Source: an uncultured Acidobacteriota bacterium (GTDB lineage Bacteria; Acidobacteriota; Vicinamibacteria; Vicinamibacterales; 2-12-FULL-66-21). Taken from it: a DNA stretch of 64,000 nt. The position numbers and the translations under genes were made by a program. Numbering within the stretch: position 1 is the stretch's first letter; each line of letters opens with the position of its first letter. Below the pieces are notes generated by a model. The model saw only the letters and a program-made list of their open reading frames with translations, had not been told where the DNA came from and searched no databases. Positions 3,018 through 61,191 of the stretch are shown here, in pieces. Location of the stretch: assembly GCA_963730995.1 (NCBI GenBank), contig CAVSUB010000004.1:459020-523019 (forward strand), read 5' to 3'.

Positions 3018-3040
3018 CTAGCAGGTCGTTGAAAAAGTAA
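3018..3040. repeat. IS left terminal inverted repeat (ctagcaggtcgttgaaaaagtaa)
   Basis: The reverse complement of 4293-4315 matches this sequence at 21 of 23 positions. Confidence 0.85.
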
Positions 3041-3141
3041 CTTTCATGGTGCCGTTCTTTCCGTTCACGACGATCCCGTGCGCCCGCGTGGTCCGTCCGT
3101 TCGACACTCGACCACGACCGTCAGCTGGTCTTGGCGGGTCC

Positions 3142-4225
3142 TCACGCCGGCACGGCCAGGAGCCGACGCATCCGGACGATGTTGTAGGCCGCCGCCGTGA
3201 AGGTGAAGATCCAGGTCACCAGGGGCCCGCCCCGATGGCGCAGCTGCCGCAAGCCCCCCACCGTCTTCATCCACCCGAAGCTTTGCTCCACCAACTTTCG
3301 TTTCTGTTGACTGATCGTGTAGCCGGGATGCCGGGTCGTGCGGCCATCGATCGCGCTGCTCCGCTGTCGGGTGGCGGGGTACTGCGCGACATGCGGGGTG
3401 ACGTGCATGTCCCGCAGATTCTTCACAAAATCGCGCGTGTCATACGCCTTGTCGGCCGCGACGGTGAGGCGGTGCGCGCCGGGCCGGCGTTCGATCATCA
3501 CCACCGCGGCGTCGCGTTCGCCATGGCCGTCCGCCGGCGTGACCATCGTATTCACGATGAGCCCAGACCGATGCTCCATCAGCACATGCCCCAGATAGCT
3601 GAGATGCGCCGCGCCCCCGCGCTTTCCGATAGAGCCGTGCATCGGGATCGGTGGTCGACTGATGCGTGTCATTGGCGCGTCGCTGCCCATGGAAATCCCG
3701 CGTCGGATTGCCGCCCCCTGCCGACGGCGGATCCTGATCGCGGGGCTGAAAACTTTTGTGACTGGCCCAGGCCTTGAGCAACGTGCCATCCACCGTGAAG
3801 TGTTCGTCCGACAGCAACCGCTCCGTCTGCGCGTGCAGGAGGACGGCCTCAAAGAACACCGCGGCGATGTCGCCCGTGAGCAGCCGATCGCGGTTCTTAC
3901 TGAACGTTGTCGGCGACCAGACCGCATCGTCGATCCCCAGCCCGACAAACCACCGAAACAGCAGGTTGTAATCCAGTTGCTCCATCAGCTGCCGCTCGCT
4001 GCGAATCGTATACAGCGCTTGCAACAGCAGGGCCCGCAACAGCTTCTCCGGCGGCACCGACGGCCGGCCGAACTGGATATACAGCGTGCCAAACTTGGGC
4101 GAGAGCCGCTCGAGCGCACGATCGGTGATGTGCCGGATGGCCCGCAACGGATGGTCCGCCGGGACCCGGTCCTCCAGCGACACATAGCTGAACATCGATC
4201 CGGATTGCTCGTCGGCTCCACGCAT
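3142..4225 (-). pseudogene. IS5-family transposase, split by a 1-nt frameshift
   Basis: The N-terminal ORF (3440..4225) reads SLEDRVPADHPLRAIR...LLFRWFVGLGIDD...TTDPDARLYRKARG. The C-terminal ORF (3142..3948) continues in another frame with AHLSYLGHVLMEHRSGLIV...AADKAYDTRDF...GWMKTVGGLRQLRHRG. The switch falls at a C5 run (3614-3618). Confidence 0.85.
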
Positions 4226-4292
4226 CGGCTCGCTCCCTTCAGGTGTGGGAGCATGGTAGTACGTGGGGATCCTTATGTCGATCCCCTTTCTC

Positions 4293-4315
4293 TTACTTTT
4301 TCAGCAACCTGCTAG
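4293..4315. repeat. IS right terminal inverted repeat (ttactttttcagcaacctgctag)
   Basis: Inverted partner of 3018-3040. Confidence 0.85.
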
Positions 4316-4599
4316 GTTCTGTGCCTCGCGATTCGTGCGAAATGAGTGTGGTCGCATGTGTACCACCCATCCACTCGCAGTCCACGAGCAAGGTTGCGAA
4401 CCTTCTCCATTGCGTCGTCGTAGTGCACAGCGGTCATGCAAGCCTCTGTCGGCAATACGCTGATCTCGTAAAGGTCAGCGCGAGCGGTGCGCGTCGAAAC
4501 AAGCACGTCACCGGCCTTCGGGACTGCCCGCTGGTTAGGCATTGTCGAAGCTGCTGCACTGTGTCCTCCAGGTCCGATACGAGACTCGCCCGCATTCAT
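4312..4599 (-). CDS. hypothetical protein
   Basis: 95-aa ORF with no recognised family. Its TAG stop lies inside the CTAG at the IS terminus. Confidence 0.3.
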   Translation of the reverse strand: MNAGESRIGPGGHSAAASTMPNQRAVPKAGDVLVSTRTARADLYEISVLPTEACMTAVHYDDAMEKVRNLARGLRVDGWYTCDHTHFARIARHRT

Positions 4600-5050
4600 T
4601 CGGATCCTCCCTCATTGTTCGACTTCGTTTGCGTAGCTTAAGGAGCAAGATACGGGCCATTCGCAGGGCTGCGTGGGCAACGCAGACTCCGCAGTCGTCG
4701 GCCGTTCGAGGCTTTCACATTTGACGCCCATTCTTTCAGTTTGAAACTGCCGCTGTAGGCAGTGTCCTCCTGAGGCCGCAGCACCAACACCAGCAAGCAG
4801 TTCGCCGCCGGATGTCATAGAGTCTCGATCGCTGGCCACCGGTTGCCTCTGTCGTAGCGGACCGGCGGGCTGATGACAGCGACGAGCCCCAGTTTCGTTT
4901 TCAGCTTCTCGCAGGCCCGGGCGCTAAGATGATGTGGCCGCCAAGCGTTCCCGTCGTCAGTTCCAGGCTTGATGTCGATGCAGGAAAGCTCGCCGTCTGG
5001 CGATCTACCAACGCTGATATCAAAGCTATTGGTCAGTTAATGGGTCGCCC

Positions 5051-5880
5051 TTACGGACTCGCGTGCAGAGAGCGCAAATCCACTCCTTTGTCCCGGAGCT
5101 GCTCGAGATCCACCGCGCGCCGAGCCTTGATGAGCGGCATCACACGGCGCACGTCCTTCGCGCGGTTGAGACCAACAGCTGCATCGATTCGGCCATCATT
5201 CACATATCACGCCAGATAGCTGTCGGAGTCCAGACGCCCGCGTACGACGAGCTGATCCCACTTCGTGTGGAATCCAGCGTACTGCAGATTCGCATCGTAC
5301 TGGTCAGACCAGAACCAGTGGACCTCGTCGTACGCGACAGGCTTGCCGAGCATGTTGCGTGCGGCAGCGGCGCCCTGTTTGATGGCGTTCTGCCAGTGCT
5401 CCACTCGAATGTGGCGGCCGAAGACGGGGTGATAGTGATTCGCGACGTCACCTGCGGCGCAAACACCGCTGACGTGGGTGCGGCAGTACTCGTCAACGAC
5501 AACGCCATTGTCCAGTTGAATATCGCTGGCTCTCACCATGTCGACCGCTGGCTCGATGCCGATGCCCACGATGACGAAGTCGCACTCAAGACGCAGCCCT
5601 GCTTTTGTGACCACGGAGGCTACGCGCCGCGTTCCCTCGAACGCGGCAACTTTGTCCTCGAAGATGGTGCGAACACCGTGAGCGCGATGGCGGTCAGCGA
5701 TGGTCTCGCCGACCGCTTCGCCGAGCACGCGGAAGAGCGGGGTCTTCGATGGGTCGATGGCGACCACGTCCAGGCCTTCTTGCCGAAGCGAGGCGGCGAC
5801 CTCCGAACCTATGAATCCCATGCCCACCACGACGACTCGGCGACCAGCCACCATCTCCTTCCGAATGTGCCTGGCGATGA
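5051..5880 (-). pseudogene. ferredoxin-reductase-like FAD/NAD(P) oxidoreductase, 5'-truncated with an in-frame TGA
   Basis: The NAD-binding and C-terminal domains are recognisable (GRRVVVVGMGFIGSEVAASL, AAGDVANHYHPVFG...RVEHWQNA, WFWSDQYD). In-frame TGA at 5207-5209 (YLA*YVNDGRIDAAVGLNRAKDV). Reading continues to TAA at 5051-5053. The N-terminal FAD domain is absent. Confidence 0.8.
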
Positions 5881-6614
5881 AGGAATGTGAGAGGCTGCTG
5901 ATGCTCGCCACGGACTTCTTATATCCGCGGTTCTCCCCCGAGAAGGCAGACACCATCCCGTGGATCTGCGTCGCGAGCAGCGCGGACGCAGGACGCGGCT
6001 CGATCTGGGCATTGTCGGTGACGTGAAGACCACCCTCCAGGCGCTACTCCCGAGGATTAGGCGCAAGACCGAACGAAGACACCTCGACGCGTCACTGGCG
6101 CACTATCACGCAGCGCGCCAGGGTCTCGACGATCTCGCGACCGGTTTCCCCGGTGTGAAACCGATTCACCCGCAGTTCGTCGCCCGTACGCTTGATGCGC
6201 TCGCGGCGGACGACGCGGTGTTCACGTGTGATATGGGAACCCCTACGGTGTGGGCGGCCCGTTATCTCACGATGAATGCACACCCACGGTTACTCGAGTC
6301 TCTCACGCACCGTCCGATGGAGAACGCCAGCCCTGCCGCAGGCGATTGGTGCGCAGCTGACGTAGCCAGCCGGGCAAGTCATCAGCATGTCGCGAGACGG
6401 CGGTCTGTCGATGCTGCTGCGAGATCTCCTCATGCTTCGTCAGGTTGGTCTGCCGGTCAAGGCCGTGGTGTTCAACAGCGCATCCCTTGGGTTTGTGCAG
6501 CTCGAAGTGCGGGCAGCACGGTTTCCCGATCGAGCCGTTGATCTCGTGAATCCGGACTGTGCGAAACTCGCAGAGGCCATGCTGGGGGTCGCCGGCGGTC
6601 AGCACAAGCTGTAG
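5880..6614 (+). pseudogene. PoxB-like thiamine-diphosphate pyruvate oxidase/dehydrogenase, 5'-truncated and frameshifted
   Basis: Successive frames give LLMLATDFLYPRFSPEKADTI, then LDLGIVGDVKTTLQALLP...KPIHPQFVAR...DAVFTCDMGTPTVWAARYL, then SRDGGLSMLLRDLLMLRQVGLPVKAVVFNSASLGFV. This is collinear with the C-terminal third of PoxB. Frameshifts lie near 5960 and 6360, and roughly the first 300 codons are missing. Confidence 0.8.
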
Positions 6615-6971
6615 GCCTGGACACCAGCACGTCGCCCCCGCTGCATGTGTCTTCGCGCTGCGCACGTCTCCGAGCTTTCACTCTGACGGCGAACCCTTCA
6701 ATCTGAAATGTTGGATTTAACGAGGACCCTGACGGGACAGGTGCATGTACGCCAGCAAGTCACTCGGATGTCAGCAGTTTTGCAGGATCCAATGGCCGAC
6801 GCGTCACTGGCCCGCTGGTTGCCTTCTTCTTCTTTGACAGGTCGGGAAGTTGACCACAACGAGGAACTGAAGGTTCTGCTGATCAAGGTGTGGGCCGGCC
6901 TTTGTCCAGCATCTCGACCAATGCAAAAGCGTTCGCGTTCGTCCACGGCAGAAGGAAAGGTAATCGTGCGG

Positions 6972-7295
6972 ATGTCCATTTTAACTGCTTCGCTCGGCCT
7001 GATCATGTGGGCCATGAGCCTAGCCGTTGCGGCCCCGCCAAAACCACAGACGCATGAGGTGACCATCGAGGGCATGCGGTTCCAGCCAGAAGTGCTGACC
7101 GTTGCATCCGGCGACACGATCGTGTGGGTCAATAAGGACTTGGTTCCTCACACGGCGACTTCCGAGGCCGGCGGTTTTGATTCTAAGGACATTCAGGCCG
7201 ACAAGTCCTGGAGGTACACAATTCACAAGACGGGCGACTTTGCCTACATCTGCACCTTCCATCCGACGATGAAGGCGACGTTGCAGGTCAAGTAA
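6972..7295 (+). CDS. cupredoxin (plastocyanin/amicyanin-like blue copper protein) with signal peptide
   Basis: ATG at 6972 follows GAAGGAAAGG. It has a signal-like N-terminus. Copper-ligand spacing is present (VPHTAT ... YICTFHPTMKATLQV). Confidence 0.8.
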   Translation: MSILTASLGLIMWAMSLAVAAPPKPQTHEVTIEGMRFQPEVLTVASGDTIVWVNKDLVPHTATSEAGGFDSKDIQADKSWRYTIHKTGDFAYICTFHPTMKATLQVK

Positions 7296-9688: not shown

Positions 9689-10483
9689 TGGTGCTCGCGC
9701 GGCCCCATTCAGCTCGAATAGCTGGATCGTCAGGCTGAATCTGGTACCGGCTGTAGCGCGGCACGGCGCGCGCTGCACGGCGCCTCGGCGCCATCGCGCG
9801 AGGTGTTCGGCAGAGCGCGATCGCTGACGCATGAAGCCTCTGAACGGTAGGAGTTTGCGTGCGACGCTCGGGCCGGGACGTCGCATCTCTCACCGTAACC
9901 GTTAGCATCCATACTGCCGACAAAACTCGGCGGGAATGCGAACTCGCTCATGGCTCCTCGATTCCGCGGCGATGACCAAAAGGCCACGGATGACATGGGG
10001 GGTGGTCGAGCCGGCCGTGCAACAGCTATGACACGGCCGCGGTCGCAAACGGCGAATCCACTGATCTTTCATGGTGAAATGCAACATCGCAATCTGCAAC
10101 GCGACGTTCGTGCGGAAAGGCGAAACGTGCTGGCAAACGACACTACCCGCGGGATCGACGTTTGCTCATCATTTGCCTGGACCGCCGAGCCATGAGGGAC
10201 AGTTCGCCGTAAGCCTCTGTGTCTGGCTCCGCGTGGCACTGTCTGACGGAAGCAAACGCAGGATGGCGCCCCGTGTTGAGGTCGTCTAGGGTAATCAGGA
10301 GTTGCTGCCGATTCGTGTTCTCTGAGTCACGATGGTGCTGGTGGGTCAAGTAGGCGGCGCACATACACGAAGACGCGGGCGCGCCTTCGCGCCGGGTGCG
10401 TGAGTGGAACGTCAAGTCGTAGTGGCGGGATTTCTCGATGACATTGCGGCGCCGCTTTCGGCGGCCCCGACGGAGGACACAGC

Positions 10484-13912: not shown

Positions 13913-13969
13913 TGATCATCGGATCCACCGTGCGTCGCGTCGAAACCCGGCACCGAGGGGAGAACCATT

Positions 13970-17931: not shown

Positions 17932-19012
17932 TCACACCCACCCCCTCTCGCGGCACGCGTGCGCCACACGTTCAACAGCAATCAGGTAAGCCGCATCACG
18001 AAGGGACACCTGTTCGCACTCCGCTCGTTGGTGTACTTCGCCGAAAGCCGCCGTCATCCGCGAATCGACCTTCTGCAGTACTTCCCGAGCGTCCAGGTAG
18101 TAGGTCGACTGTCCCTGAACCTGCTCGAAGAAGCTGCAGGTCACGCCGCCGGCCTCGCCAGGATGTCCGGGATGATGAGAATCCCGCGATCCTCGAGCAG
18201 CCGGTTCGCCTCCGATGTCGTCGATCCGTTCGCCCCTTCCGCAATGACTCGCACTCGGCCGTGGATACGCGACGCACTCGCGGCTGTGATCTGGTTCTCC
18301 ATTGCGGCGGGTATCAGGACGTCGACGTTCTGATCGAGCCACGTCGCTCCAGGCAGAACCTCGTCGCCGTGCTCGGCTGCCCGGGCGCGATCGATAGTTC
18401 CGAACCTGTCGTCAGTGCCGTCAGTTCCTGCGGATCAACACCCGAAGGCTTCCGAAACGTGTGTGCCTGACCTTCTTCGGCATTCCATTACGACAGGGCG
18501 ATCACAGTCCCGCCCGAGTCAACGAACCGTTCCAGCGCCTCGCTGAGCGCGTTGGTCGCGGGAGTGTGGGTGGGTCTTTCCAACGTTTGCACTGAACCAT
18601 TCACGATGACTGTCTCCTAAAGAATGAAAGCGTCGGTGTCGGAGTCTGAGCACCCTCGCGACGCGCCACACAACGCTATCCAGCGGCCGGCTACCTGCGC
18701 CGCGTAAAGCGAACTCAGTTGACTACGAGCGACGCGGACCTACGGACAGGTGGGACCGGCGGTGTGGGTGCCGCTAGGCGTCGGCGCGAATCACGACGAC
18801 CGCCAAAGGCGGCGGTCCATGCGATTCGCGCCCGCACCACCGCCGTGACAGAGGCCGGCGCCGAACGAGGGGATGAAGGAAACCAGCATCTTCACTCGAG
18901 AGCAAGAGACAGCAGCAAGGCCAACGACTGCGCTCGCGCACCAAGAGAGCAATTTACGAGCCGATCTGAAAAGCCAGGGAAATGCGGCTTTCGCTCCGTG
19001 GGACGGTTTCAC
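17932..19012 (-). pseudogene. glutamate (Glu/Leu/Phe/Val) dehydrogenase, heavily degraded
   Basis: The C-terminus is intact in one frame (GGVTCSFFEQVQGQSTYYLDAREVLQKVD...VSLRDAAYLIAVERVAHACRERGWV). Upstream pieces lie in other frames (NVDVLIPAAMENQITA...VIAEGANGSTTSEANRLLEDRGILIIPDILA; GVDPQELTALTT; GGTVIALS*WN with in-frame TAA). A probable GGxKGG-region remnant (LCHGGGAGANRMD) lies near 18830. At least four frame changes are present. Confidence 0.75.
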
Positions 19013-19812: not shown

Positions 19813-20816
19813 ATGTCCAATGTTGCCACGATTGTATGCCCGGTTGATTTTTCACATCATTCCGCGGTGGCGCTGGGGTGGGCAACCGCGTGGGCTCGGT
19901 ATTTCGGAGCGCGGCTCATCGTTGTGACGGTCCTCGAACCCCTTTTAGTAGGTGCGGCGGCCATAACGTATGACATGGATCTCGCCCGGGAGGAGGTATG
20001 GCCTGATCTCCGCAAATTCGTGATGAAGACGAGTGACAGGGACTGGAGTCGGCCCCTCGCCAGAAACCACTGTGCTTGTCGGCGCATCCCGCAACGCAGA
20101 TCGTGGCACTCGCCCAACGCGAGCGTGCGCAGTTAATCGTCATGGCTACTCGCGGCCTGACTGGCTACCGCAAAAGGCTTGTGGGTTCGACGACCGAGCA
20201 GGTACTCCGTCACGCGACCGTGCCGGTCCTGATTGCGCCTCCGTCCGACCAGAGCGTGCCGGGCGCCGATTCAGTGATGACGGGAATCGGCCACGTGTTG
20301 GTACCGGTGGACTTCAAGGACGAGTCCGAAAGGGATCTGCGAGCGGGAGCGGATATCGCGCAGAGACTCGGCGTCCCTCTGCTGGTCCTTCACGTAGTGG
20401 CTCCGATCAAGGGCCTCGAACGTCTGCGGCCGCACATCGACGTCCACAATCGCGCGCAGTTCGAGCTGGCCGAGCGAGAGGCCCAGCAACTCACGTCCAG
20501 GATTCGGAAGTCGATCGACATCGAATCGGTCGTGGCGATCGGATCGCCTGCGGAGGAAATAGCCAAGACCGCAGCCGCGCGAGATGTGGGACTGATTGTC
20601 ATGGGCCTTCGGCGACAACAACACATCTTGGGGGCGCGGCCAGGGTCGATCGCCTATCGCGTGCTGGGACTGGCACCGGCCCTGATCTTGGCGCTTCCAG
20701 CGGGAGAGGTCGATGTCGGGTGGATGGGAACAGATCGCACTGCTCGAGGAGGTCGCTCTGGTGTCGTAGGCGTCGCTCCGCGCACGGTGACCGCGAGAAT
20801 GTCAATCGAGGAGTGA
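19813..20816 (+). pseudogene. tandem universal stress protein (UspA family), two frameshifts in the first domain
   Basis: Frame 1 gives MSNVATIVCPVDFSHHSAVALGWA...ARLIVVTVLEP. Frame 2 gives GVGPSPETTVLVGA. Frame 3 gives HPATQIVALAQRERAQLIVMATRGLTGYRKRLVGSTTEQVLRHATVPVLIAP, followed by a second complete USP domain. Confidence 0.75.
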
Positions 20817-20979
20817 CGGTATGAAGGTCATGTCGCCCGAGCGTCTGCGGGCCGCCGACTAGCAATCACACGGTGGATGGCTCGTCACAGTCCGTGTCTC
20901 AGGCACACGCCGCGGTGGCGGTGGTGAGGACCCTTCGCCGGCACGCCCAATGCGAGCAGCCGCGCGTGGAAGAGTCCAC

Positions 20980-23054: not shown

Positions 23055-23445
23055 TCCCTCCTGCTGTTGAAGCTATCAGCGTGGCTGAGCGGTCCGACGC
23101 TCATCAATATCTGGGGCACATGAGTCGCTCTGCGTTGATCAAGAACGCATCCGCGCGATCGCACCACGCACCGGCGCGGCTCTGCGGGCCACCGCCCAAC
23201 GCGCCTGGCGCGTGATCCGCCCCGAACACTGTTCCAAGTGGTACGCCCATGTTGGCTACTGCTGACAACTCAACTGATCTCTGGGGTTAAGCCACTGGGC
23301 CATGACAGTGACCGACGCGCCGGTTCAGTATTGCTCAGGAGCGTGTTGAGGACTGATCGCCGCGGTCGCAGCTCCAGTTATGGCGGCCGTGCGCGAGACT
23401 GCCAGACGACGGCTCAGTTGCGCCAAACCGAACGTGAGGTGCGAA

Positions 23446-23891
23446 ATGCACGAGATCATCACGACGATGGAAATCAACGCGCCGCCGCGAAGTGTACGGA
23501 AGGTGTTGGTGGATTTCCAGGCGCATCCGCAGTGGAACCCTTTCGTTCGCAGCATCGAAGATCGCCGCGGGAGGGTGAAACGGTGAAGGTATCTATTAAA
23601 CCGGTCGGCGGTAAGGACACGACATTTCGCCCGCGCGTCCTTCGTGCTGTGCCAGATCAGGAGCTGCGATGGCTGGGGCGCGTCGTGTTTCCGGGTATTT
23701 TCGATGGAGAGCATTTCTTTAAGATCGAGCCGCTGGAGGAGGGCCGCCGCACGAGGTTCATCCAGGTCGAAGGATTCACTGGTCTCCTGGTGCCACTGTT
23801 GCGCAAGAACCTCGATCGTGGCACACGGGAGGGATTCGAGGCCATGAACCAAGCGCTCAAGGCTCGGGTGGAGGAATCGTCACGAAGATAA
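23446..23891 (+). pseudogene. SRPBCC-fold protein, 1-nt frameshift
   Basis: MHEIITTMEINAPPRSVRKVLVDFQAHPQWNPFVRSIE stops at 23584-23586. The rest (EGETVKVSIKPVGGKDTTFRPRVLRAVPDQELRWLGRVVFPGIFDGEHFFKIEPL...) continues in the adjacent frame. The junction is near 23560. Confidence 0.75.
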
Positions 23892-27725: not shown

Positions 27726-28076
27726 ATGATGCTCGATTGGAACCAGTATCGCGAGCAATTTGCTGAAGGCGATTGACGATCTCGGGCGGCTCAGCAAGCG
27801 GACGTGCGGGGCTATTGGGGAGCTGAGTGAAGCCGGCACCAAGACCGCTCGGCTCGACGCGAAGAGGCGCGAACTGATTGCGCTCGCGGTTGGTGTCATA
27901 CGCCAATGCGACGGCTGCATCACGACACATGTCCTTCAGCCCGCAAGCACGGAGCGACGGCAGAAGAGCTCGCCGAAGCGTTGGGCGTGGAGATTGCGGC
28001 AACGGCTGGGGCAGCTCTGGTGTACTCGGCTCGTGTGTTGGACGCCTTTGCGGCAGAAGCAGAGCACGGGGAATGA
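27726..28076 (+). pseudogene. carboxymuconolactone decarboxylase/AhpD-like (CMD family) protein, two frameshifts
   Basis: MMLDWNQYREQ (frame a), then LLKAIDDLGRLSK...LDAKRRELIALAVGVIRQCDGCITTHV (frame b, CxxC), then ARKHGATAEELAEALGVEIAATAGAALVYSARVLDAFA (frame c). Confidence 0.75.
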
Positions 28077-37220: not shown

Positions 37221-37280
37221 GTGCGCGGAGCCGATCGATAAATGGCCCAGGAACGCCGAAGGAAGGCGCACGTGAAACGC

Positions 37281-37530
37281 CCCACATCAGAATCTTCACC
37301 CGTCCGATCCGATCGGCGAGACCGCCAACCACGACGATGAAGATGCCCGAGAACAACGCCGTGATAGCCACGGCGATATTCATGACGTTGGTCGGAATTC
37401 CGAGGTCGGCCGCCATTGCTGGCGCGATGTTGAGCGTCGTCTGAGCAAACAGCCAGAAGGCGAGCACACTGAGAATGATGCCCAAGAGGAGCGTGTCGTT
37501 GCCACGATACGGACCTGGCTCTCCAGTCAT
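37281..37530 (-). pseudogene. N-terminal fragment of an MFS (DHA2-like) transporter
   Basis: MTGEPGPYRGNDTLLLGIILSVLAFWLFAQTTLNIAPAMAADLGIPTNVMNIAVAITALFSGIFIVVVGGLADRIGRVK. Homology stops after about 2.5 TM helices. Confidence 0.65.
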
Positions 37531-38863: not shown

Positions 38864-39849
38864 ATGCTAAAAACTCCACTCTTTGTCGTGCCGGTTGATT
38901 TCTCAGAGGGATGGAGGCGACGGTTTCACCGGCCTTCGCGCTTGCAAAGAAGTGCGGAGCTCACGTTCATTTGCTCGAAGTCGCTACGCCTCGCGGCCCC
39001 TCACTCTTCGATGACAGAGCCGACATCCGATCAGGCGGCCCAGTGACGTCGACGGGCGACTGGTCCCAGTTGGAGGACTCAATACACGCGGCAAAGCGTG
39101 AGCGCATACAAGTGCGAGCTGCCGCGTATCGCGGGGACCCGACCACGATTATCACGTCGTATGTGGAGCTCGTGAAGGCGGGGCTGCTCGTGATTGGTCA
39201 GTACTACGGAACGGCTCGCTGGCGGCGGAACACACGAATCGTGAGTACCCTCAGCCGCGCGGCACCTGTTCCCGTCCTCGTCTTGCCACCACGCCGACGC
39301 CCAGAGAAGACCAAGTCGCTTTCGTTCGGTCACATCGTTTCGGCTGTCGACTTCACGGTCGCGTCCGTAGTAGCGGTGCGAACGGTACTCGATCTGATTC
39401 GCCGGACCGGCGCCCGACTGACCCTCGGCACGCATTGAGAAATGCCCTCCCGAACATGGTGTTCTCCGGCGGCGAGGCCGTCAGACTCACAAGGAATCTG
39501 AGAGGGCTCGCCGCTCCAGGTTGCAGAACACTTTCGACAGAAGATTCCGGCCGACGTCAGTATTCACGCTGACGTGCGTGTGACGACCGGTGATCCTCAT
39601 CGCGGGATTCTCGATATCGCATCAGAGGTGAAAGCGGATCTCATCGTGATGGGCGTGCCGCCCCGGAGCCGATTCGACGAAGTGCTGTTTGGTTCCACCC
39701 TCCGAGCCGTACAGCGTCCGATGAAGATCCCTGTGTTGGTACTTCCAGTACTTGCCGGCGCGTACAAATGGCTAGAGGAGAAGGACAGTGTGGACGTCAC
39801 GATGCCCTCGAGGAATCGAGGACGACGCAGACGACAGCTCGCGCGTTAG
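38864..39849 (+). pseudogene. tandem universal stress protein, at least three frameshifts
   Basis: MLKTPLFVVPVDFSE (frame a), then MEATVSPAFALAKKCGAHVHLLEV...LLVIGQYYG...PVPVLVLP...FGHIVSAVDF..ARLTL (frame b). After further frame changes comes KIPADVSIHADVRVTTGDPHRGILDIASEVKADLIVMGVPPRS...LRAVQRPMKIPVLVLP. Confidence 0.7.
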
Positions 39850-40979: not shown

Positions 40980-41483
40980 CTACCGATTGGTCTCGTTATG
41001 GACTACTCGCCATCCGCTGTTGGCCGCGGTAAGGGCCCGCCCGTCATGCGTCAGGAGGACCGGATCATTCAACGACAAATTTCGTTGCGCGGGCACGGTC
41101 AGGGCGGGACACTCCGAGGGTGCAACGACCACCAACGGCACAGGACGCAAGGGCCGCTCCGGACCGTCAGCGCCCGGAGCGCCCATCACGATCAAGTCTG
41201 GCATCCATCGCACGAATCGAAGAATCTGGACACCAGGGTCGCCATCGCGTTCGGCCGCTCCGACGCGATCGTAGCCAGGCGCAGCCTCCGCCAGCCACTC
41301 GCGCAGTTGCGACAGGACGTCCTCACGATAAGCGAGCTGAAGCTTACGCCGACCCCGTGTTTCCCGACGGTATTACGTGGAGCGCCCTTAGTTCTGCGTT
41401 GCACGCGCGGGCGATGCCGACCGCCAATGATAGCGAAGCCGCTGCCAACGGGGGAAGTCGACAGCCAAGAATATACCGAACAT
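40980..41483 (-). pseudogene. universal stress protein, at least two frameshifts
   Basis: GGAGG followed by ATG (41483) gives MFGIFLAVDF. After a C5 run the frame changes to PLAAASLSLAVGIARACNAELRALHVIP. A third frame gives GDPGVQILRFVRWMPDLIVMGAPGADG...VPLVVVAP. Confidence 0.65.
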
Positions 41484-42665: not shown

Positions 42666-43904
<1,239 letters not shown>

Positions 43905-43915
43905 ACACGTGAACG

Positions 43916-45151
43916 CTAGGCCCTGCCACCCTGAATCGCTGCCAGCTTGGGCCCGTCGCTGAAGGCCTCTTTCAGAATTCTTGTGAGCCTGGCTTGGCGC
44001 TCCGGCACCCAGCGGGCGTAATGCTCCCGCACCGTCTTCTCATCGTCGCCGAGCAGATCCGCAACATCGGCAACCGGAACACCCTTCTGCAACAGGATTC
44101 GCGCAAAAGTGTGGCGAAACCTGTGCGGAGTCGCGCGTTCTGTTCCGACGTCGGCGAGCTCGAACACCTTTCCGAGCCGCTCTCGCCATTTGTCGATCAC
44201 GCTGTCGAGCCGTTCGGTCCCACCGATCAGAAACGGGCGTTTGCCGTGCAGCTTGACCCGGGCGTTCAAGCGATCGCGCAGCCAATCGGGGATATGGGTG
44301 AACACATCACCGCCGTTTTTCTTCGCGCGGAGGAAAACTTCATTGCCATGAAGACGCTCGATATCGAATAGGACCACGTCCGAGATCCGAAGGCCCGTAT
44401 ACACCATCAGCCAGATGAAGTCCTTTAGATCCTCGCCGCTCCACGTGCCGTTGCCGTAACGGTTGCCCCATTTGCCGCTGCCGTAGAAATCGTTGATGAC
44501 GTCACAGGCCCTAATGATCTCCTCGAGCTGCTCGTCGGTGAACGGCGCCTTGTTGACCAGGCGATGAGCGCCAGTTGGTGGTTTCAGGTCAGGACTGACG
44601 GGCGACTTGACGAGCCACTCGCGGTTGACGGCGAAGCGGAAGAAGCTGCGAAGCCTCTCGAGCATCTTGGCTTTCGAGCGGGGTCCCAGCTTGCTCTTCG
44701 TGTAGAAGGTGTCCATGTCGCCAGGTCGGAACTGATCGAGGAACACGTAGCCCCGCGTATCGGCGTACGCTTGGAGCTGTTTCGTGAACGTCTTGTACTT
44801 GCGGTACGTGGGATTGGCGACGGTAGCCTCACGGGTGGCGAGAAGGACATTGCAGGCCTCCTCGATCGTGATACGCGGCGGCGTCTCTGAGACGGCGATT
44901 GGTTCCGGCTTCGGGGTGCCGGTCCAGGAGTCGGCGTTAATGTACTTGTCCGCGAGCCGGTGCGCCTCAGTCCAGTCGGCGGTCCCCGTGGCTTTCCGGG
45001 AGAACTTGCCGCCAAGTGTGCCTGAGACGAAGATGACGCACCCGCACCGCTTCCAGCCCTTCTTGCGTTCGTCGAACTCGCCGGAGCGGAACTCGGCAGA
45101 GTGGCCGCCTTCGCAGCCTGGACGATGTCGCCTGTACAGGTGAACGGCCAT
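43916..45151 (-). CDS. tyrosine-type site-specific integrase (intact)
   Basis: 411-aa ORF with catalytic region GLRISDV...ATPHRFRHTFARILLQKGVPVADVADLLGDDEKTVREHYARW. It sits 83 nt from the 3' end of tRNA-Ser, on the same strand. Confidence 0.9.
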   Translation of the reverse strand: MAVHLYRRHRPGCEGGHSAEFRSGEFDERKKGWKRCGCVIFVSGTLGGKFSRKATGTADWTEAHRLADKYINADSWTGTPKPEPIAVSETPPRITIEEACNVLLATREATVANPTYRKYKTFTKQLQAYADTRGYVFLDQFRPGDMDTFYTKSKLGPRSKAKMLERLRSFFRFAVNREWLVKSPVSPDLKPPTGAHRLVNKAPFTDEQLEEIIRACDVINDFYGSGKWGNRYGNGTWSGEDLKDFIWLMVYTGLRISDVVLFDIERLHGNEVFLRAKKNGGDVFTHIPDWLRDRLNARVKLHGKRPFLIGGTERLDSVIDKWRERLGKVFELADVGTERATPHRFRHTFARILLQKGVPVADVADLLGDDEKTVREHYARWVPERQARLTRILKEAFSDGPKLAAIQGGRA

Positions 45152-46517: not shown

Positions 46518-46565
46518 CACATCCGCAATCGTCGTTAGCCAATCATTGAGGAGCTGCGCGAACAG

Positions 46566-47035
46566 ATGGAACGGGAAGAGCGTTTCTTCAATGAGTGGAA
46601 GGACTGGGCCACTGTCGAGCGCCGTCTGAAGGCGGCGATGGCGCGCGTGATCGAGCGTGACTCCGTGCTGCTTGAGGACTCCACCGGCGAGCGCTGCATT
46701 GCCCACCGGCTCGCCGTTTACCTCGAGAACGAGTTCGGCGGATGGCACGTGGATTGTGAATTCAACCGGCAGGGCAAGGAGGGGGCGCGCGACACGAAGC
46801 GCGTGAGTGCCAGTCCGGCTTTGCCAGAGTCCCGCAAAAGGGCAGGGCACGAAGGACGTCACGCCGGACATCGTTGTTCACCAGCGCCGCCGGGATGACC
46901 GGAACCTCCTAGCCATCGAGGTCAAGCCCTCAGACAGCAATGAGATCTCCACGGACCGCGAAAAGCTACGCAAGTACCTGACGGATGCCCACCTGCGATA
47001 CTCTTTTGCGGCGCTCGTAGCCTTCTCAGTCGCGG
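46566..47035 (+). pseudogene. small PD-(D/E)xK-like protein, frameshifted and fused to foreign 3' sequence
   Basis: ERCIAHRLAVYLENEFGGWHVDCEFNRQGKEG is in one frame. VTPDIVVHQRRRDDRNLLAIEVKPSDSNEISTDREKLRKYL is in the next. It is divergent from the 45923..46517 relic, with 48 nt between the starts. Confidence 0.5.
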
Positions 47036-47436
47036 CCGGCATGATCAAACCGATCGTCGGCGCTGGCTCGCAGTACATGAGCACGGCCAGGGACAAGAGC
47101 GGTGCGTGGTTGGATGGCGGCAAGAACTATCGACTACGAGTGCCGGCGAACGTCCCCGTCAAGGAATTCTGGTCGGTGACGGTCTACGACAACATGACGC
47201 GCTCGATGATCCAGACCGACACCAATAAAGCCGGTCTTGATTCCCACCAGCAACTGCAGGTGACTGCCGACGGGTCGGTCGATCTGTTCTTCGGTCCGGC
47301 AGCTCCAGCCGGGTTCGAGAGCAATTGGGTGAAGACGATCGCCGACAAGGGCTGCTTTACCTACTTTCGCTGGTACGGGCCAACGAAAGAATTCTTCGAC
47401 AAGACGTGGACGCTGCCCGACATCGAGCAGATCTAG
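47036..47436 (+). pseudogene. C-terminal DUF1214 fragment (5'-truncated), in frame with the preceding relic
   Basis: GAWLDGGKNYRLRVPANVPVKEFWSVTVYDNMTRSMI...ESNWVKTIADKGCFTYFRWYGPTKEFFDKTWTLPDIEQI. Only the last ~130 residues of a DUF1254/DUF1214 protein are present. Confidence 0.65.
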
Positions 47437-50254: not shown

Positions 50255-50443
50255 GTTTCAGCTCGAGCTTCTTCCGCAGCTCCGCGACGACGCGGCGAGT
50301 CGTGTCGATGTCCTTGATCGCCAGGTCCTCGGAAAGACCGTTGGCCCACGGCGCTTGCACACGGTGGCCTCGTCGAACGTCCAGCGCCCCTTCTCGGTCA
50401 GCACGACGAGTGACGCTCGGCGGTGATGCGGGTTCACCTCGAG
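50234..50443 (-). pseudogene. C-terminal fragment of a MarR-family regulator, frameshifted
   Basis: LEVNPHHRRASLVVLTEKGRWTFDEATV is in one frame. WANGLSEDLAIKDIDTTRRVVAELRKKLEL is in another. There is no N-terminal half. Confidence 0.55.
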
Positions 50444-51916
50444 TGTAGGGAGCCTCTCATGCCGCTACTTCGCCCCCTCGACCCCGCGTTTCCGCTCGAC
50501 CGACAGCTCGTTTGCTTGTCCTTCATGTCGGTCCTCCTTGGATCGGCAGCGCAAAATCCCGGGCCAAGTGGACAGGAACCGACAATAGCGCCTCCACCGT
50601 CTTTGAATTTCTGTACCTTCAGTGGTCCTTTCGTCCGCATCGCATCCGCGGGCGCCGGATCGGAGGGCCTGGTTGTACGGGTCTCGCCTCCGTCATCGGT
50701 GCGCTATCTCAGGGGAGCTCCAATTGTCGTGCACATGTTCAGCGCAACCCCGAGCGTCAGCGGCTCGCTCGCTTGCCTGAGCGAACAACGGTTCGTCGAC
50801 GTCGGATTCCTGTGCCCCGGCGGACGGTACACCGAGTCGGACGGAACCGTGTCGAGAAGCGGAGGCCGAGGGCCGGTCGATCAGGCTCACGCGCAGAACT
50901 GCATCGAGCCCTTGGCAGATGTTCTCTCCTTTGCCACCGGAAAGACACGCTCCTTGGACGGTAGGTCGATTCACGACTACACCGGTCGCATACATGCCCT
51001 GACTGACCAGGTTGGCCTCATCGGCTGGTCGTTCGGCGGGACGCTGGCGACGCTCGCAATGGCGAGATACGGAGAGCGCTTCTCGGAGATGAAGTGGTTC
51101 GCCAGTTGGGAGTCTCCCATTGCAGGCACATGGGACGATGGACGTGGAAGCAGATTTCAGTCGAACCGCTTCTACCACCAGGATACCGACACGGTCGAAT
51201 TCGATCGTCTCCGGTACGATCCAGAGATGCCGGTGTGGGCATCGCCGACGCTGAGGCTGCAGCCTCAGGCGGATTGGCCTCGAGGCGGTCTGTTCCTCGA
51301 TGGCGACGGGAACGGCCGATTCAATAAGGACCGAGACTACGCGTTCACGGCGGACGTCGATCTCGGACCGCCGTTCAAGGTCTTCTATTCACCCACAGTA
51401 ATTCGTCAAGCGGCAGAGCGGAGTGTCTTCGGCCCTGTCTGGCCCGCCCACATCGCTTCGCAGGAGGCAGTTGAACGTCGAGCTCGCGAAACGGACGGGT
51501 TGGGTCAGATTCCAGCGGCAGTGAGACGATTCCCACGCATGGCGATTCTTGTGTTCGAATCGCAGCAACACCACGTTCGTGCCAGCGACCATTCTCAGGC
51601 GATCGCGCATGTGAACGCGTGGCTCGATGCCCGTGCGCGATGGGTCCGCTTCAACCCAGACGTGCACTACGTGGAGAGCGCAATGGGCAGAAAGCTCTCG
51701 CGCGACGTGCAGTACCCCGCAGGTCAGAAACTCGGTTGGAACTTGATCCGCGACTACCTGGAGCCGGAGGAGAGCGACGGCGGACCGACGGATGCCGAGG
51801 GGATGACCGCGGCCGCGTGCGAGTTAGCCGACCGAACCTACTACAAGAGTTGGGCGCCGCTGCTCCCGAGTGTGCTCATCCAGCACCACAATATCCCAAC
51901 CGGTCCGAGGCAGTAG
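50423..51916 (+). CDS. alpha/beta-hydrolase-like protein (start uncertain; 50459 possible)
   Basis: 497-aa ORF with a nucleophile-elbow-like motif (VGLIGWSFGGTLA). No closer family was recognised. Confidence 0.55.
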   Translation: MMRVHLECREPLMPLLRPLDPAFPLDRQLVCLSFMSVLLGSAAQNPGPSGQEPTIAPPPSLNFCTFSGPFVRIASAGAGSEGLVVRVSPPSSVRYLRGAPIVVHMFSATPSVSGSLACLSEQRFVDVGFLCPGGRYTESDGTVSRSGGRGPVDQAHAQNCIEPLADVLSFATGKTRSLDGRSIHDYTGRIHALTDQVGLIGWSFGGTLATLAMARYGERFSEMKWFASWESPIAGTWDDGRGSRFQSNRFYHQDTDTVEFDRLRYDPEMPVWASPTLRLQPQADWPRGGLFLDGDGNGRFNKDRDYAFTADVDLGPPFKVFYSPTVIRQAAERSVFGPVWPAHIASQEAVERRARETDGLGQIPAAVRRFPRMAILVFESQQHHVRASDHSQAIAHVNAWLDARARWVRFNPDVHYVESAMGRKLSRDVQYPAGQKLGWNLIRDYLEPEESDGGPTDAEGMTAAACELADRTYYKSWAPLLPSVLIQHHNIPTGPRQ

Positions 51917-53040: not shown

Positions 53041-53132
53041 GTGGCCATGTTCACGAGATCTTTGCTTCGATCCGCCAGCTCGATGAGCATGGCCCGATGC
53101 ACCGACATGTGCGGACGGGAGGAGTGGAGGGT

Positions 53133-55601: not shown

Positions 55602-55864
55602 CGTGTTTCAGCGGAACTCCAGCCCATTCGCGTTGCGATGGTGCACATCGCGCTGGGAGAGAGCGATCGCGCATTCGCGTGCAGCGCGACGGTGGAGCGA
55701 TCCAGGAGATCCGCGCCGGTGACGTCGTGTGGTTCGAGCCGGGCGAAAGGCACTGGGACGGCGACTCGCGTCAATGGTCGCTAGTATAGACAGGTTATTG
55801 GCGCGAGTACGCTTCCGCTCGTAGAGTGTCGTTGGCTTTCGTCCCCCCCAACGGAGAAGCACCA

Positions 55865-58800: not shown

Positions 58801-59203
58801 GGTCAGCGTCTTCGGCGACACCGCGAACGCCGGATCGCTCTTGAACGTCAATCCGATCCGCGCCAACGTTGTCCCCGGCGTGTCACCCGAGGTTGAGCAT
58901 CCGAACGCAGACATGTGGTTCAACACGGCGGCGTTCGTCACGCCGCCGCCGTTTACATTCGGCACGGCGACACGCAACAGCCTCTGGGGCCCCGGACTGA
59001 AGAAAGCGGACCTCGCGCTCGATCGCGAGATCCCGCTGAACGGTGCGTTGAAGTTCCACTTCAGGCTGGAAGCGTTCAACCTGTTCAACACGGTCAACTA
59101 CAACACGCCGAACCGCTTCGTGAATACGCCCCAGTTCGGCACGATCACCGAGGCCGCCACCTCGGCGCGCCAGATCCAGTTCGTCTTCCGCGCGACCTTC
59201 TAG
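55865..59203 (+). CDS. TonB-dependent receptor with an N-terminal carboxypeptidase-regulatory-like domain
   Basis: GTG at 55865 follows GGAGA. It has a signal peptide. GTVRDEQGLVAPGVTVTL..TTSGDGGFELPGLLPGDYKMTVE is the CarboxypepD_reg domain. Plug and beta-barrel follow, ending ARQIQFVFRATF. Confidence 0.9.
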   Translation: MRLGKRAVVVVLFAATAFARIHAQGSTASLAGTVRDEQGLVAPGVTVTLAGTENTFSRTVTTSGDGGFELPGLLPGDYKMTVELSGFTRQELAVHIEVNQRVRTDVVLKAGGLTQQVQVTQTAALLHVSDATVGEVIDQRQVAELPLNGRQFLELALLVPGAHTSHGAQMGDMNPLYWRPGQNSAITISGGRPNSNVYLLDGTVNTDPTFNTFVISLPPDAIREFQIQTGTYTAELGGAGTGQINVVTKSGTFKTRGSVYEYVRNSKFDSPEFTNPDELPPFKQNQFGGTLGGAAGKGFFFFGGYEGLRTTQHMSNIMFVPDMAVRSGDFTGYAPIYDPLTNRANPAFNPALPVSPANPQFIRDQFPGNTIPANRINSVSRDVLAKYVVEPNRDDPTDNYLDTRAHDFENNGYNIRLDRAWGNGTLLYGRYSLSDETGFTPQNLPGFGAYHDNRVHNLTVTLLNPTTKRMLTETRFGFARMRMHRYGESANGTDHIAQLGIPGVGYGGEDAYGLPLFDIQGYDPIGDSLLCTPCQYWNNNFQFGERVTWSSGKHSVKFGGDARKFNWDMLGFFQNRGYFQFTTPITSRTSLADGTGNAFASFLLGTPALSQRQAGTPSMVMRQMTYSAFVQDDWRVSPALTINAGLRYEIQTPLHDISKILTNLDFSKGAPVAFVGGQNGYPKGLVYIDNNNIAPRFGVAWSPGDAKNVLRAGGGIFYSYPDMNLWCNQVHNVPLVFPEIRVNNAATPAVGFGFAPPVLGQTLTSFTAIDTHLQIPRIDQVSVSFERQLTATSMIQVGYLGAWGSSLDRSRLVNNAQPGPGGVQPRRPIQTIPFVPGTDLGTLPPDVTVASTTFPVGPINLLESSGKSQYNSVWILTKRSFSRGLSYLASYTYSDSLSDSPTFRSPNAEAEVPQNSFDPAADWGPAGCDIRHRFVASVIYKIPYASTGGVTTGEKIARGVFGGWQASLIYQLQSGFPFTVSVFGDTANAGSLLNVNPIRANVVPGVSPEVEHPNADMWFNTAAFVTPPPFTFGTATRNSLWGPGLKKADLALDREIPLNGALKFHFRLEAFNLFNTVNYNTPNRFVNTPQFGTITEAATSARQIQFVFRATF

Positions 59204-59217
59204 ACTTCAAGGTGGGT

Positions 59218-59511
59218 CTACGCGACATCCTTGCGGACGTGCCGGGCCAGCACCTCGTTGATGAGGGTTTGATATCCGACTCGGCGTCGACGTGCTTCCT
59301 TGCGGAACTGATCGAGCACTCCGAGATCGACTCGGATCGCAATCAACCGGCGCGGCTCGTCCCCAATCGGAGGGCGCCCGACGGGCCGCATGGACTTCAG
59401 CTGCTTCGCGGATGAATCGGGAATGTCCGAGAAATCAATCTTGCGCCGTGTACGCCGCACGTTCTCGCCGGGTTGCGCGACGCTCGCTGATGATCCGGAT
59501 CGCTTCGGCAT
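59218..59511 (-). CDS. brnA: BrnA antitoxin (RHH/CopG-like); start uncertain
   Basis: IDFSDIPDSSAKQLKSMRPVGRPPIGDEPRRLIAIRVDLGVLDQFRKEARRRRVGYQTLINEVLARHV. Alternative GTG starts at 59481 or 59460 would shorten the overlap with brnT. Confidence 0.8.
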   Translation of the reverse strand: MPKRSGSSASVAQPGENVRRTRRKIDFSDIPDSSAKQLKSMRPVGRPPIGDEPRRLIAIRVDLGVLDQFRKEARRRRVGYQTLINEVLARHVRKDVA

Positions 59512-59716
59512 CGCCACTTCTCCTGAATGTGGACGCGACCATAAGCACGCGGCCGCTCGCCGAGCGCCCAAACCGCAGGAACCGCGACTCCGCCGACGAG
59601 TGCTGCAGGTCTGGGCCGTCGAGCGCGGCGGGATCGAGGAAGACGGTCACGGCGTCGTCGAACGAGACGTGCTTCGCCGCGTTGGCCTCAGCCTTTCGCG
59701 GGTCCCACTCGAACAC
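59435..59716 (-). CDS. brnT: BrnT ribonuclease toxin (DUF497)
   Basis: GTG start. (M)FEWDPRKAEANAAKHVSFDDAVTVFLDP...ESRFLRFGRS..GRVLMVAST..IRIISERRATRRERAAY. Confidence 0.85.
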   Translation of the reverse strand: MFEWDPRKAEANAAKHVSFDDAVTVFLDPAALDGPDLQHSSAESRFLRFGRSASGRVLMVASTFRRSGDAEAIRIISERRATRRERAAYTAQD

Positions 59717-59815
59717 TGATTTAGTATATACGAAATTTGGGCCGCGACTGGACCATGGGCGTTACACGTACGAGTGCACACCGAGTCGTACGCTATAAGT
59801 ACGACCGGTTTTCGT

Positions 59816-59854
59816 GTCAGAACTGTGTCACATACTCCCGAAACCCCCGGCAAC
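59816..59854. repeat. copy B of the ~40-bp dispersed repeat
   Basis: See 48859-48899. On the minus strand it supplies the last codons and the stop (GFREYVTQF*) of the kinase fragment. Confidence 0.7.
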
Positions 59855-60160
59855 GACGCCCCGGAAAAGCGTGCTTGAGCGAATTTGAGACCAGTTCGTT
59901 GACGATCAATCCGCACGAGATCGCGGCATCTATACCGAGGGGAATGTCCTCGGTATGGACCGCAAGGACGATGTCGTCTGGATTCACGCCGTATCGTCCG
60001 GTGTGCGGCTGACGATGGTTGTTGAGTCAGGACCAGGGCGTCAGCCTTTGGTCGACGCACAAGCGCTTGATGGTCGATACCAGGTCGACGGACCCCATTT
60101 TCGATAGGAAGGCAGATGGTCCCGCCTCGAAGAACGCCTGCTTCGAGGCTCAGATCCGCC
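59855..60160 (-). pseudogene. fragment of a HisKA_2/HWE-type histidine kinase (region around the ATPase N-box only)
   Basis: VDLVSTIKRLCVDQ is in one frame. DDIVLAVHTEDIPLGIDAAISCGLIVNELVSNSLKHAFPG is in another. There is an in-frame TGA further upstream. No sensor, H-box, G1 or G2 region is present. Confidence 0.6.
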
Positions 60161-60162
60161 GA

Positions 60163-60708
60163 CTACCCCAGCGAAAGCGGCGGGCCAACGATTTCCATTT
60201 CGCATGCGCGGTAAAGCTTCTCGTCCGCCGCGAAGTCGGAGATCTTTGCCGCCTCTTGAAAGAATGTCTCCATTTTTCCAGCAGGTTGGAAGCCAATGAG
60301 TATCTTCCCTGGCATTTCGCCGACGTACGCCCAGACGTGGGGAACCCTCCGCGGCGCCAGAAGAGAATCGCCGGGTCCCAACCGTATCCGCTCCTCTCCG
60401 ACTTCGAAGACATACTCGCCCTCCATCACATAGAACCATTCCTCCTGATTGTGATGGAGATGACGTGGCGGACCGCCTTTGCGCAAACTGACCTGATCGA
60501 ATACGAACAACCCCCCATTGGTGTCCCGACTGGAGACTTTGTACGCGATTTGGTTCGCGCCGGCGATCGTTCGCTGCTGGTTGAACCGATCCGCGCCGTG
60601 TTCTACATGGACGACGCGATCGGATCTTTGGAGTGCGGATGATTGTCCGAGCGCTATCGGAAAACTGCCGGCCGCCTCAAGGAATGTCCGCCGGTCCATG
60701 TTTCTCAT
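60163..60708 (-). CDS. cupin-domain protein with a Tat-like signal
   Basis: MDRRTFLEAAG (twin-arginine-like), then cupin motifs (GGPPRHLHHNQEEWFYVMEGEYVFEVG...PRRVPHVW). Confidence 0.8.
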   Translation of the reverse strand: MRNMDRRTFLEAAGSFPIALGQSSALQRSDRVVHVEHGADRFNQQRTIAGANQIAYKVSSRDTNGGLFVFDQVSLRKGGPPRHLHHNQEEWFYVMEGEYVFEVGEERIRLGPGDSLLAPRRVPHVWAYVGEMPGKILIGFQPAGKMETFFQEAAKISDFAADEKLYRACEMEIVGPPLSLG

Positions 60709-60999
60709 CTTCTGCGCCTCTTTCTTGAATCATAACGCCTGTGGACTGTGCGGCACTTGGCGGGTTCTCGGATCCGTCCTGCCTCGTCGCCAAGAATTTA
60801 CGAAACGTCCGCGCTCTCCTGTATCGAGCCCGATGGTGGGCGCAGCCGGTGGGCGCGCACTTCGAGTTCACCAGCGGCCGTTCCTTCCGCGCGCTTCGAA
60901 CGTCGCGCAAAATTTGCAGAACGATGTCGATTTCCGGCAAGCTCGTTCGTCGTTCCAATGAGACGCCAAATGGGGCCGGCTCAAACAAGGAGGCAGACG

Positions 61000-61191
61000 A
61001 TGCGGGTTATGGTGTTCGCGAAAACCACTGAGGACAGCGAAAAGGGCGAGCCCCCCACGCCCGAGGCGTTCGCGGCGATGGACCGCTTCATCGAGGAGCT
61101 GGCCAAGGCCGGCGTCTTCGTTGCCGGCGCCGGCCTCAAGAACAGCGCCCAGGCCAAGCGCATCGTTTGCGAAATGACGATCGGGGGCTGA
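61000..61191 (+). pseudogene. YciI-like (DGPF-family) protein, truncated after ~60 codons
   Basis: AAGGAGG followed by ATG at 61000. MRVMVFAKTTEDSEKGEPPTPEAFAAMDRFIEELAKAGVFVAGAGLKNSAQAKRIV matches the N-terminal half of YciI-like proteins. The DGPF-containing half was not found in any frame. Confidence 0.5.

Follow-up and report, generated by a model that had tools for sequence, protein, structure and literature searches.

Are the many broken genes that crowd a stretch of bacterial DNA truly decayed, or do they only reflect the errors of a metagenome assembly? The question is raised by a 64,000-nucleotide stretch, hereafter the window, from an uncultured Acidobacteriota-like soil bacterium which appears to be free-living. 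The original prediction, made from the letters of the window alone, had claimed that roughly a third of the recognisable genes are broken while every long gene stays open, and had attributed this pattern to real relaxed selection on a subset of accessory and stress genes. The latter claim finds support in lesions shared with relatives of about 99% identity, in kilobase deletions and in nonsense substitutions. It is indeed likely that the decay is mostly real, rather than mainly artefactual, and results from local relaxed selection and deletion in a strain-variable accessory region. This reading is carried by direct observations, namely the lesions themselves, frame joins that prove valid, lesions either shared with or informatively different from those of close relatives, and structural deletions and replacements. 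Much of the decay is structural, consisting of deletion and segment replacement in a strain-variable zone, and not of point disruption alone.

Broken and intact loci of the window

Coding candidates were sought in all six frames using a codon-usage score trained on long open reading frames (ORFs). The candidate segments were scanned against Pfam with stops masked as X and with neighbouring segments split over separate query proteins, so that each segment received its own profile coordinates. Long ORFs were scanned directly, as were 20 suspect loci, for which each of the three coding-strand frames was covered. As a last step, frame-joined conceptual proteins were built and scanned against Pfam. 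Further homologue alignments, including tblastn, were used for the disrupted loci.

On the evidence of Pfam, frame joins and homologue alignments, 17-18 loci are broken (18 in the tally, 10.5 kb) and 44 (41.1 kb) are intact, i.e., 29% of about 62 loci are broken, close to the predicted third, and the list of disrupted genes turned out to be largely correct. The GC content of the window is about 62% and its intact coding density is 64%. The disruptions comprise 19 point lesions distributed over 11 loci, and 7-8 loci are truncated. The disrupted genes of the left and central parts of the window, together with the elements that contain them, are the following:

3018..4315 (-), complete IS5-family insertion sequence with 23-nt terminal inverted repeats (3018-3040 and 4293-4315)
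5054..6043 (-), ferredoxin-reductase-like remnant with an in-frame TGA (5207-5209), the first ~133 Pyr_redox_2 positions being gone
5960..6611 (+), C-terminal remnant of a PoxB-like (TPP enzyme) gene with a frameshift near 6335 and one in-frame stop
17932..18600 (-), glutamate dehydrogenase (GDH) pseudogene with a TAA (18488-18490), a 1-nt deletion near 18410, and a 1-nt deletion plus a substitution at 18154
19813..20824 (+), tandem-USP gene USP1 with a frameshift between 20031 and 20085, within the first USP domain
23380..23891 (+), SRPBCC (Polyketide_cyc2) gene, frameshifted once (~23572) at a junction free of homopolymers
27726..28076 (+), CMD/AhpD-like gene with two frame changes, near the N-terminus and at ~27934, the CxxC motif being kept
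37279..37530 (-), MFS transporter stump retaining the first 84 of 486 residues
38277..39599 (+), segment of 1,324 nt in which a dead OsmC paralogue is followed by the greater part of USP2, likewise dead
38354-38800 (+), OsmC paralogue (OsmC2) with TGA codons at 38534-38536 and 38771-38773
38864..39849 (+), tandem-USP gene USP2, running past the end of the preceding segment, with a frameshift near 38900 and TGA codons at 39436 and 39499
41031..41372 (-), USP3, C-terminal stump of a USP-domain gene, corresponding to the last ~70 residues of a 383-residue gene
42670..43916 (+), second gene for a tyrosine recombinase (integrase), disrupted by three frame changes

Consecutive Pfam coordinates fall on separate frames in the IS5, CMD, SRPBCC, USP1, USP2, integrase, PoxB and GDH loci, and the joins proposed between these frames hold against real homologues, restoring continuous, full-length family matches with far better E-values. 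In the IS5 transposase (3142-4225, minus strand), DUF772 and DDE_Tnp_1 lie in different frames separated by a single frameshift at the C5 run 3614-3618, precisely where a break had been expected. Once repaired, the protein can be aligned without a break, over 99% of its length and with 62% identity, to single-ORF IS5/ISAzs10 transposases. The best eight homologues listed all align in one piece across the join, their annotated records corresponding to single IS5-family transposase genes, and 295 plasmid records contain one matching place covering at least 80% of the IS5 query. The joined integrase, for which a break had also been anticipated, gives a continuous Phage_integrase match (2-169/172, E = 2.5e-21). 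In the SRPBCC gene, profile positions 1-45 and 43-142 occupy different frames, and the joined protein covers the whole domain (1-142/142, E = 5e-15), whereas the joined CMD protein matches CMD 9-83/84 (E = 3.5e-17). The intact CMD gene of one relative (L087) was unusable as a template, since it belongs to a different subfamily.

Three USP loci had been reported as broken, and each is, USP1 by its frameshift, USP2 by a frameshift and two TGA codons, and USP3 by reduction to a stump. The joined USP1 and USP2 proteins match Usp with E = 5.7e-44 and E = 2.5e-30, respectively, and a 325-residue single-ORF homologue of USP1 (L003) aligns to the window in frames 1 and 3. A scan of GTDB genomes with the P-type ATPase of the window found only relatives 60-83% identical and of partial synteny, which were of use for USP1 only.

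GDH, equally predicted as disrupted, combines the TAA codon with two frameshifts and the deletion of its N-terminal domain, for which no Pfam support exists anywhere in the window; the deletion junction reads 'ERF|VDSGG'. GDH homologues map by tblastn to three frames of the locus, and the joined protein matches ELFV_dehydrog 48-241/241 (E = 1.7e-45). The PoxB-like gene, confirmed as broken, consists of TPP_enzyme_C only, without the N-terminal or middle domains, and its joined protein gives TPP_enzyme_C 1-123/151 (E = 8e-16). The ferredoxin-reductase-like locus, in which the predicted TGA was found, is reduced to Pyr_redox_2 positions 134-291 and Reductase_C, a synteny breakpoint (5867) falling in its truncated 5' end. 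The OsmC paralogue, the SRPBCC gene and the CMD gene were all correctly listed as broken, by two TGA codons, a frameshift and two frame changes, respectively.

Three other assignments found no confirmation. Where an 81-codon ORF was thought to be disrupted at a C6 run, an intact ORF of 78 residues (17058-17294) is present in both assemblies, the run (17333) being located upstream of that ORF and identical in the window and in L087. Of two DUF2934 copies, the one at 16156-16362 is intact, and any disruption would concern the one at 19241-19393. The presumed PD-(D/E)xK genes have no Pfam match at E <= 0.001, the Mrr_cat profile reaching only E = 0.037.

All nine genes of at least 1.4 kb are intact, with full Pfam domain coverage. 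The intact set includes a GH15 glucoamylase, a transaldolase (tal), a transketolase (tkt), a P-type cation ATPase, a seven-gene mrp antiporter operon, a duplicated FtsX/MacB (ADOP) permease, a 1,125-residue TonB-type outer-membrane protein, an M50/CBS protease and a 411-residue integrase. It also comprises a DUF1254/DUF1214 protein, a zinc-type oxidoreductase, DUF3300 and DUF2950 proteins, a BrnT/BrnA toxin-antitoxin pair, OsmC, FMN reductase and SnoaL-like proteins, and several more. Intact paralogues of the OsmC, DUF1254/1214 and integrase genes thus reside in the same window. The P-type ATPase is 82-83% identical to proteins of Acidobacteriota metagenome-assembled genomes, and a public protein collection drawing on NCBI and ENA sources contains identical copies of 6 of the 10 window proteins tested.

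The observation that long genes stay open is therefore correct, but as an argument it is partly circular, because the PoxB, MFS, GDH, ferredoxin reductase and integrase genes look short only through truncation. Typical lengths of PoxB, MFS, GDH, ferredoxin reductase and integrase genes are 1.2-1.7 kb. The comparative evidence is the stronger argument.

Shared, private and structural lesions in close relatives

The relatives available for comparison are two ENA contigs, contig_5468 (ERZ25039464; loci L082, L087 and L088) and contig_86213 (ERZ25039520; locus L083), which are 98-99.6% identical to the window over most of the shared sequence, two flanking blocks reaching 92.7% and 96.7%. When orthologous loci are compared, as the original prediction had proposed, the lesions are either shared or informatively different. 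L087 matches 5867-18374 with 99.6% identity over 12.5 kb and just three indel events, of which one affects GDH and two fall outside annotated genes. The lesions of the PoxB-like gene are therefore shared, the PoxB-like stretch of contig_5468 being identical to that of the window and free of indels. L083 is collinear with 21417-41268 (99.0% identity over 19.9 kb) and gap-free across 21417-29000, and therefore carries the same SRPBCC and CMD frameshifts. Small indels that distinguish the window from contig_5468 occur only in pseudogenes or unannotated DNA, and none in intact genes. In this respect, the 92.7%-identical block containing both integrases is instructive: about eight small window deletions relative to L082, whose own copy is split, fall in the broken integrase, whereas the intact copy is indel-free on either side.

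Other lesions differ between the window and a relative. In L087, the N-terminal domain of GDH is complete but some 100 central residues are missing and a private stop occurs, whereas the window keeps the centre, has lost the N-terminal domain and bears a private 1-nt deletion. Different large deletions in one gene imply that a dead gene is decaying independently in two lineages. Similarly, USP1 of the relative is split at the same place as in the window, by different indels. In USP1 and the integrase, most of the divergence is found at third codon positions and thus probably predates the loss of function, inactivation seeming recent in comparison with the divergence of the alleles.

Structural changes add to these small lesions. 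Breakpoints or replacements relative to contig_5468 occur at 5867, 18374-18523, 37279/37280, 38277-39599, 41241-42155 and 45331-61318, and the segments 41241-42155 and 45331-61318 have no counterpart in contig_5468. The MFS piece, rightly taken for a fragment, is a stump by Pfam and by comparison with an intact 486-residue orthologue in L082; it forms the edge of a clean 3,445-nt deletion (37279/37280), in which an M20 peptidase gene and a USP gene, both present in L082, were lost as well. Conversely, the 1,324-nt segment with the dead OsmC paralogue and most of USP2 is absent from L082, where it was removed between the short (8-nt) repeats CCGCGCGA and TCCCGCGA. The USP3 gene is intact in L082, and its upstream part has been replaced in the window by the unrelated sequence 41241-42155. 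At the 3' end of the dead USP2 gene (39742-39743), a short T/A run shows three lengths in three assemblies, and corresponds either to a hypervariable site or to a recurrent basecalling problem.

With respect to their nature, six of the point lesions are nonsense substitutions, five TGA and one TAA. Homopolymers of at least five bases are found at or near only 3-4 of the ~13 frameshift junctions (the IS5 C5 run, C6 at 17333, G5 at 46781 and G5 near 41450), and no run of four or more identical bases exists at the junctions of PoxB, GDH (two), SRPBCC, CMD, USP2 and the integrase. None of the 19 point lesions is located in the 19.9 kb of long genes (P = 9e-5 under a uniform model), and the contrast persists when the comparison is restricted to seven full-length but point-disrupted genes carrying 12 lesions (P = 1e-3). 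The point lesions are also clustered, in 11 loci versus about 15 expected by chance (P = 0.01).

Decay, assembly error, strain mixing or recoding

It could be objected that the consensus of a long-read metagenome assembly, unpolished or of low coverage, is in error at most of the disruptions, the genes being intact in the organism. The pattern does resemble long-read indel artefacts in its apparently split genes and in the few junctions at 5-6-base homopolymers, and the relatives appear to be Flye-style ENA metagenome assemblies, of which L083 itself bears the signature of error. In L083 7821-11719, equivalent to the mrp operon of the window (29999-33937), some 17 single bases are in excess, many of them splitting mrpA and mrpD, and mismatches are locally frequent. 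The stretch has the look of an assembly error and offers an internal contrast to the window, whose long genes show nothing comparable. However, base insertion and omission would not account for six stop-creating substitutions, for genes bearing multiple lesions, or for several loci cut by kilobase deletions or replacements. Most frameshift junctions lack a homopolymer, lesions recur in assemblies from other samples, and they cluster while sparing 41 kb of intact genes, which the indels relative to contig_5468 also avoid. Assembly error as the main cause is accordingly very unlikely. Closely related strains might also have been collapsed into a chimeric consensus within one metagenome bin, and at least three structurally different variants of the region, about 99% identical, indeed exist in related samples, the lesions concentrating in the strain-variable segments. 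Yet contigs assembled separately from other samples reproduce these junctions and frameshifts to the base, the deletions have clean edges, and neither stop codons nor multi-lesion genes are expected from a collapse, which makes strain mixing very unlikely.

Functional recoding was considered as well, in the form of a selenocysteine TGA in the OsmC paralogue, a programmed frameshift in IS5, or phase-variable homopolymers, the IS5 shift and two other junctions being located at C5, G5 or C6 runs. In the OsmC paralogue, the first TGA stands at the very position of the conserved first Cys (GSC -> GT*). Nevertheless, the second TGA falls on a conserved Ser and another conserved Cys is lost. The 120 OsmC homologues listed (59-73% identical) are all of complete OsmC length (137-190 residues), none is truncated at the TGA site, and the four that were aligned all possess a Cys there. 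No selenocysteine insertion sequence was matched by Rfam, only a weak hairpin being found at the OsmC paralogue, downstream of the TGA. The selenocysteine reading was thus rejected, and programmed frameshifting in IS5 is excluded because the homologous transposases are single ORFs across the join. Recoding in any of these forms is extremely unlikely.

Real decay remains the preferred reading, with several points that weigh against it. Synonymous and non-synonymous differences amount to 61:44 in intact genes and 75:76 in broken genes, without clear separation, so that relaxed selection is not demonstrated by the substitution pattern. The 3-4 junctions located at or near runs of 5-6 bases remain unproven, since context-specific errors could recur across samples. 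The insertions that break mrpA and mrpD in L083 establish that such assemblies do contain errors. Furthermore, contig names and ENA accessions suggest that the relatives are Flye long-read metagenome assemblies of one project, in which case errors tied to the same sequence context could be common to assemblies regarded as independent. One large project of the Flye long-read type relied on Nanopore-only data and a single round of Medaka (PMC12313526), although the ENA accessions could not be linked to it.

With these points taken into account, the best explanation is that the decay is confined to a plasticity zone, and is neither a genome-wide syndrome nor an artefact, the count covering the window alone. 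Redundant stress paralogues (USP, OsmC, CMD, SRPBCC, GDH, MFS and the DUF1254/1214 copy) would no longer be under purifying selection, paralogue redundancy being the presumable cause of its relaxation, and genes of mobile elements (the IS5 transposase and the second integrase) would be decaying likewise. Inactivation would begin with a nonsense substitution or a 1-2-nt indel, additional small deletions would then build up, and kilobase deletions or segment replacements would finally clear the remains. The window contains pseudogenes assignable to each of these three stages. The broken genes are probably non-functional, as judged from their sequences. In turn, core or still-useful genes (tkt, tal, the glucoamylase, the mrp operon, the P-type ATPase, the ADOP permease and the TonB-type receptor) would have been left untouched under purifying selection.

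The phenomenon is of a known kind and nothing in it is conceptually new. The formation and removal of bacterial pseudogenes by relaxed selection and deletion bias have been described in Salmonella and in reducing genomes (Kuo & Ochman 2010, PMC2916853; Danneels et al. 2018, PMC6054270). The window resembles these cases in the succession of point lesions, small deletions and loss of whole remnants, and in lesions that are strain-specific, close relatives being in different states at a given locus. Unlike genome-reduction syndromes, it represents a local pile-up, with 29% of the loci broken in 58 kb of an apparently free-living soil bacterium (a figure counted in the window only), and the neighbouring regions of contig_5468 contain ordinary intact genes, including those for RND efflux, kinase, sigma-factor and permease proteins. 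A bolder and rather doubtful proposal would be that a soil Acidobacteriota population is dismantling a whole paralogous set of stress and dormancy genes (USP, OsmC, CMD, SRPBCC, GDH-like and MFS), whose dead members persist unusually long beside conserved operons. If true, large-genome soil bacteria would keep local 'gene graveyards' with about 30% of pseudogenes, and strain-to-strain differences could serve to time gene loss and to measure deletion bias in uncultured lineages.

As regards annotation, about 10 kb of the window belongs under pseudogenes and remnants rather than under many short hypothetical proteins, and the broken genes should be left out of any metabolic or stress-response inference for this genome. 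From a methodological point of view, three near-identical, separately assembled contigs sufficed to tell real decay from long-read error without recourse to the reads. The region also documents, as a clean natural series, how pseudogenes of an uncultured soil lineage pass from a single stop to multiple indels, a stump and complete removal.

The tRNA-Ser hotspot, the right-hand segment and GDH-like genes

The broken integrase is followed by an intact one and by a tRNA gene, beyond which further remnants occur:

43916-45151 (-), intact 411-residue integrase (Phage_integrase)
45225-45314 (-), tRNA-Ser(GGA), the sole RNA gene found by an Rfam scan of the window
46539..47433 (+), frameshifted ORF containing a PD...(D/E)xK-like motif and continuing in frame into an isolated C-terminal DUF1214 domain
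50261..50464 (-), short piece of the C-terminal part of a MarR-like gene
59820..60026 (-), fragment of ~69 codons with a histidine-kinase N-box ('LIVNELVSNSLKHAF')
61000..61191 (+), YciI-like N-terminal fragment of 63 codons

The intact integrase adjoins the tRNA-Ser gene, and together they mark an integration hotspot. Like tRNA-linked genomic islands, the window associates an intact integrase beside a tRNA gene with a decayed second integrase, an excisionase-like HTH_17 ORF and an IS5 element, and a 99%-identical relative lacks segments on either side of the tRNA or has others in their place, the sequence to the right of the tRNA (45331-61318) being entirely different in contig_5468. Unlike such islands, no direct repeat of the tRNA 3' end of at least 24 nt occurs in the window, shorter att sites not having been searched, and decaying genes occur throughout the window, in between conserved operons, instead of forming a single bounded island.

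The DUF1214 piece, which had been listed as a fragment, is a stump (46807-47433) that matches DUF1214 2-112/112, and 46539..47433 as a whole represents what a deletion has left of a paralogue of the intact DUF1254/DUF1214 gene (47325-48779). The MarR, histidine-kinase and YciI fragments can be recognised by motif, as claimed, but none has a significant Pfam match. Members of the YciI family normally comprise about 115 residues or more.

The zinc-type NADP oxidoreductase (49337-50254; 305 residues) is 86% identical to a Bradyrhizobium protein, has a third-position GC of ~0.9, much above that of its neighbours, and is located within the strain-specific segment 45331-61318; its gene was probably acquired recently by horizontal transfer. 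The same segment contains two copies of a 35-nt direct repeat, 86% identical (GTCAGAACTGTGTCACATAC...), at 48859-48893 and 59816-59850, about 11 kb apart, the second of which adjoins the histidine-kinase fragment.

Elsewhere, four stretches of 0.6-1 kb lack a recognisable gene. Two of them (9689-10483 and 14183-15198) have no gene call in L087 either, and in the other two (18600-19240 and 34476-35251) only short ORFs without a Pfam match are called. The four stretches may have regulatory functions or encode RNA, or be older remnants that have become unrecognisable.

Many metagenomic homologues of the GDH remnant (P0004, P0009, P0038, P0075, and L089 3001-3846) are stand-alone genes encoding 274-296 residues, in which lengths of 274, 280 and 296 residues recur, the 296-residue forms that were read beginning with 'MA.NLGP..DVPAPDV'. 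These proteins lack the N-terminal glutamate-binding domain, which bears the catalytic Lys. Since the upstream neighbour is on the opposite strand in two contigs, the short form seems to represent a genuine and conserved family of truncated GDH-like proteins. A hibernation factor (Ribosomal_S30AE), a sigma-54 activator and a cupin recur around the GDH-like genes, both in the window (2-2902) and in the distant contig L089, which hints at a conserved stress/dormancy neighbourhood.

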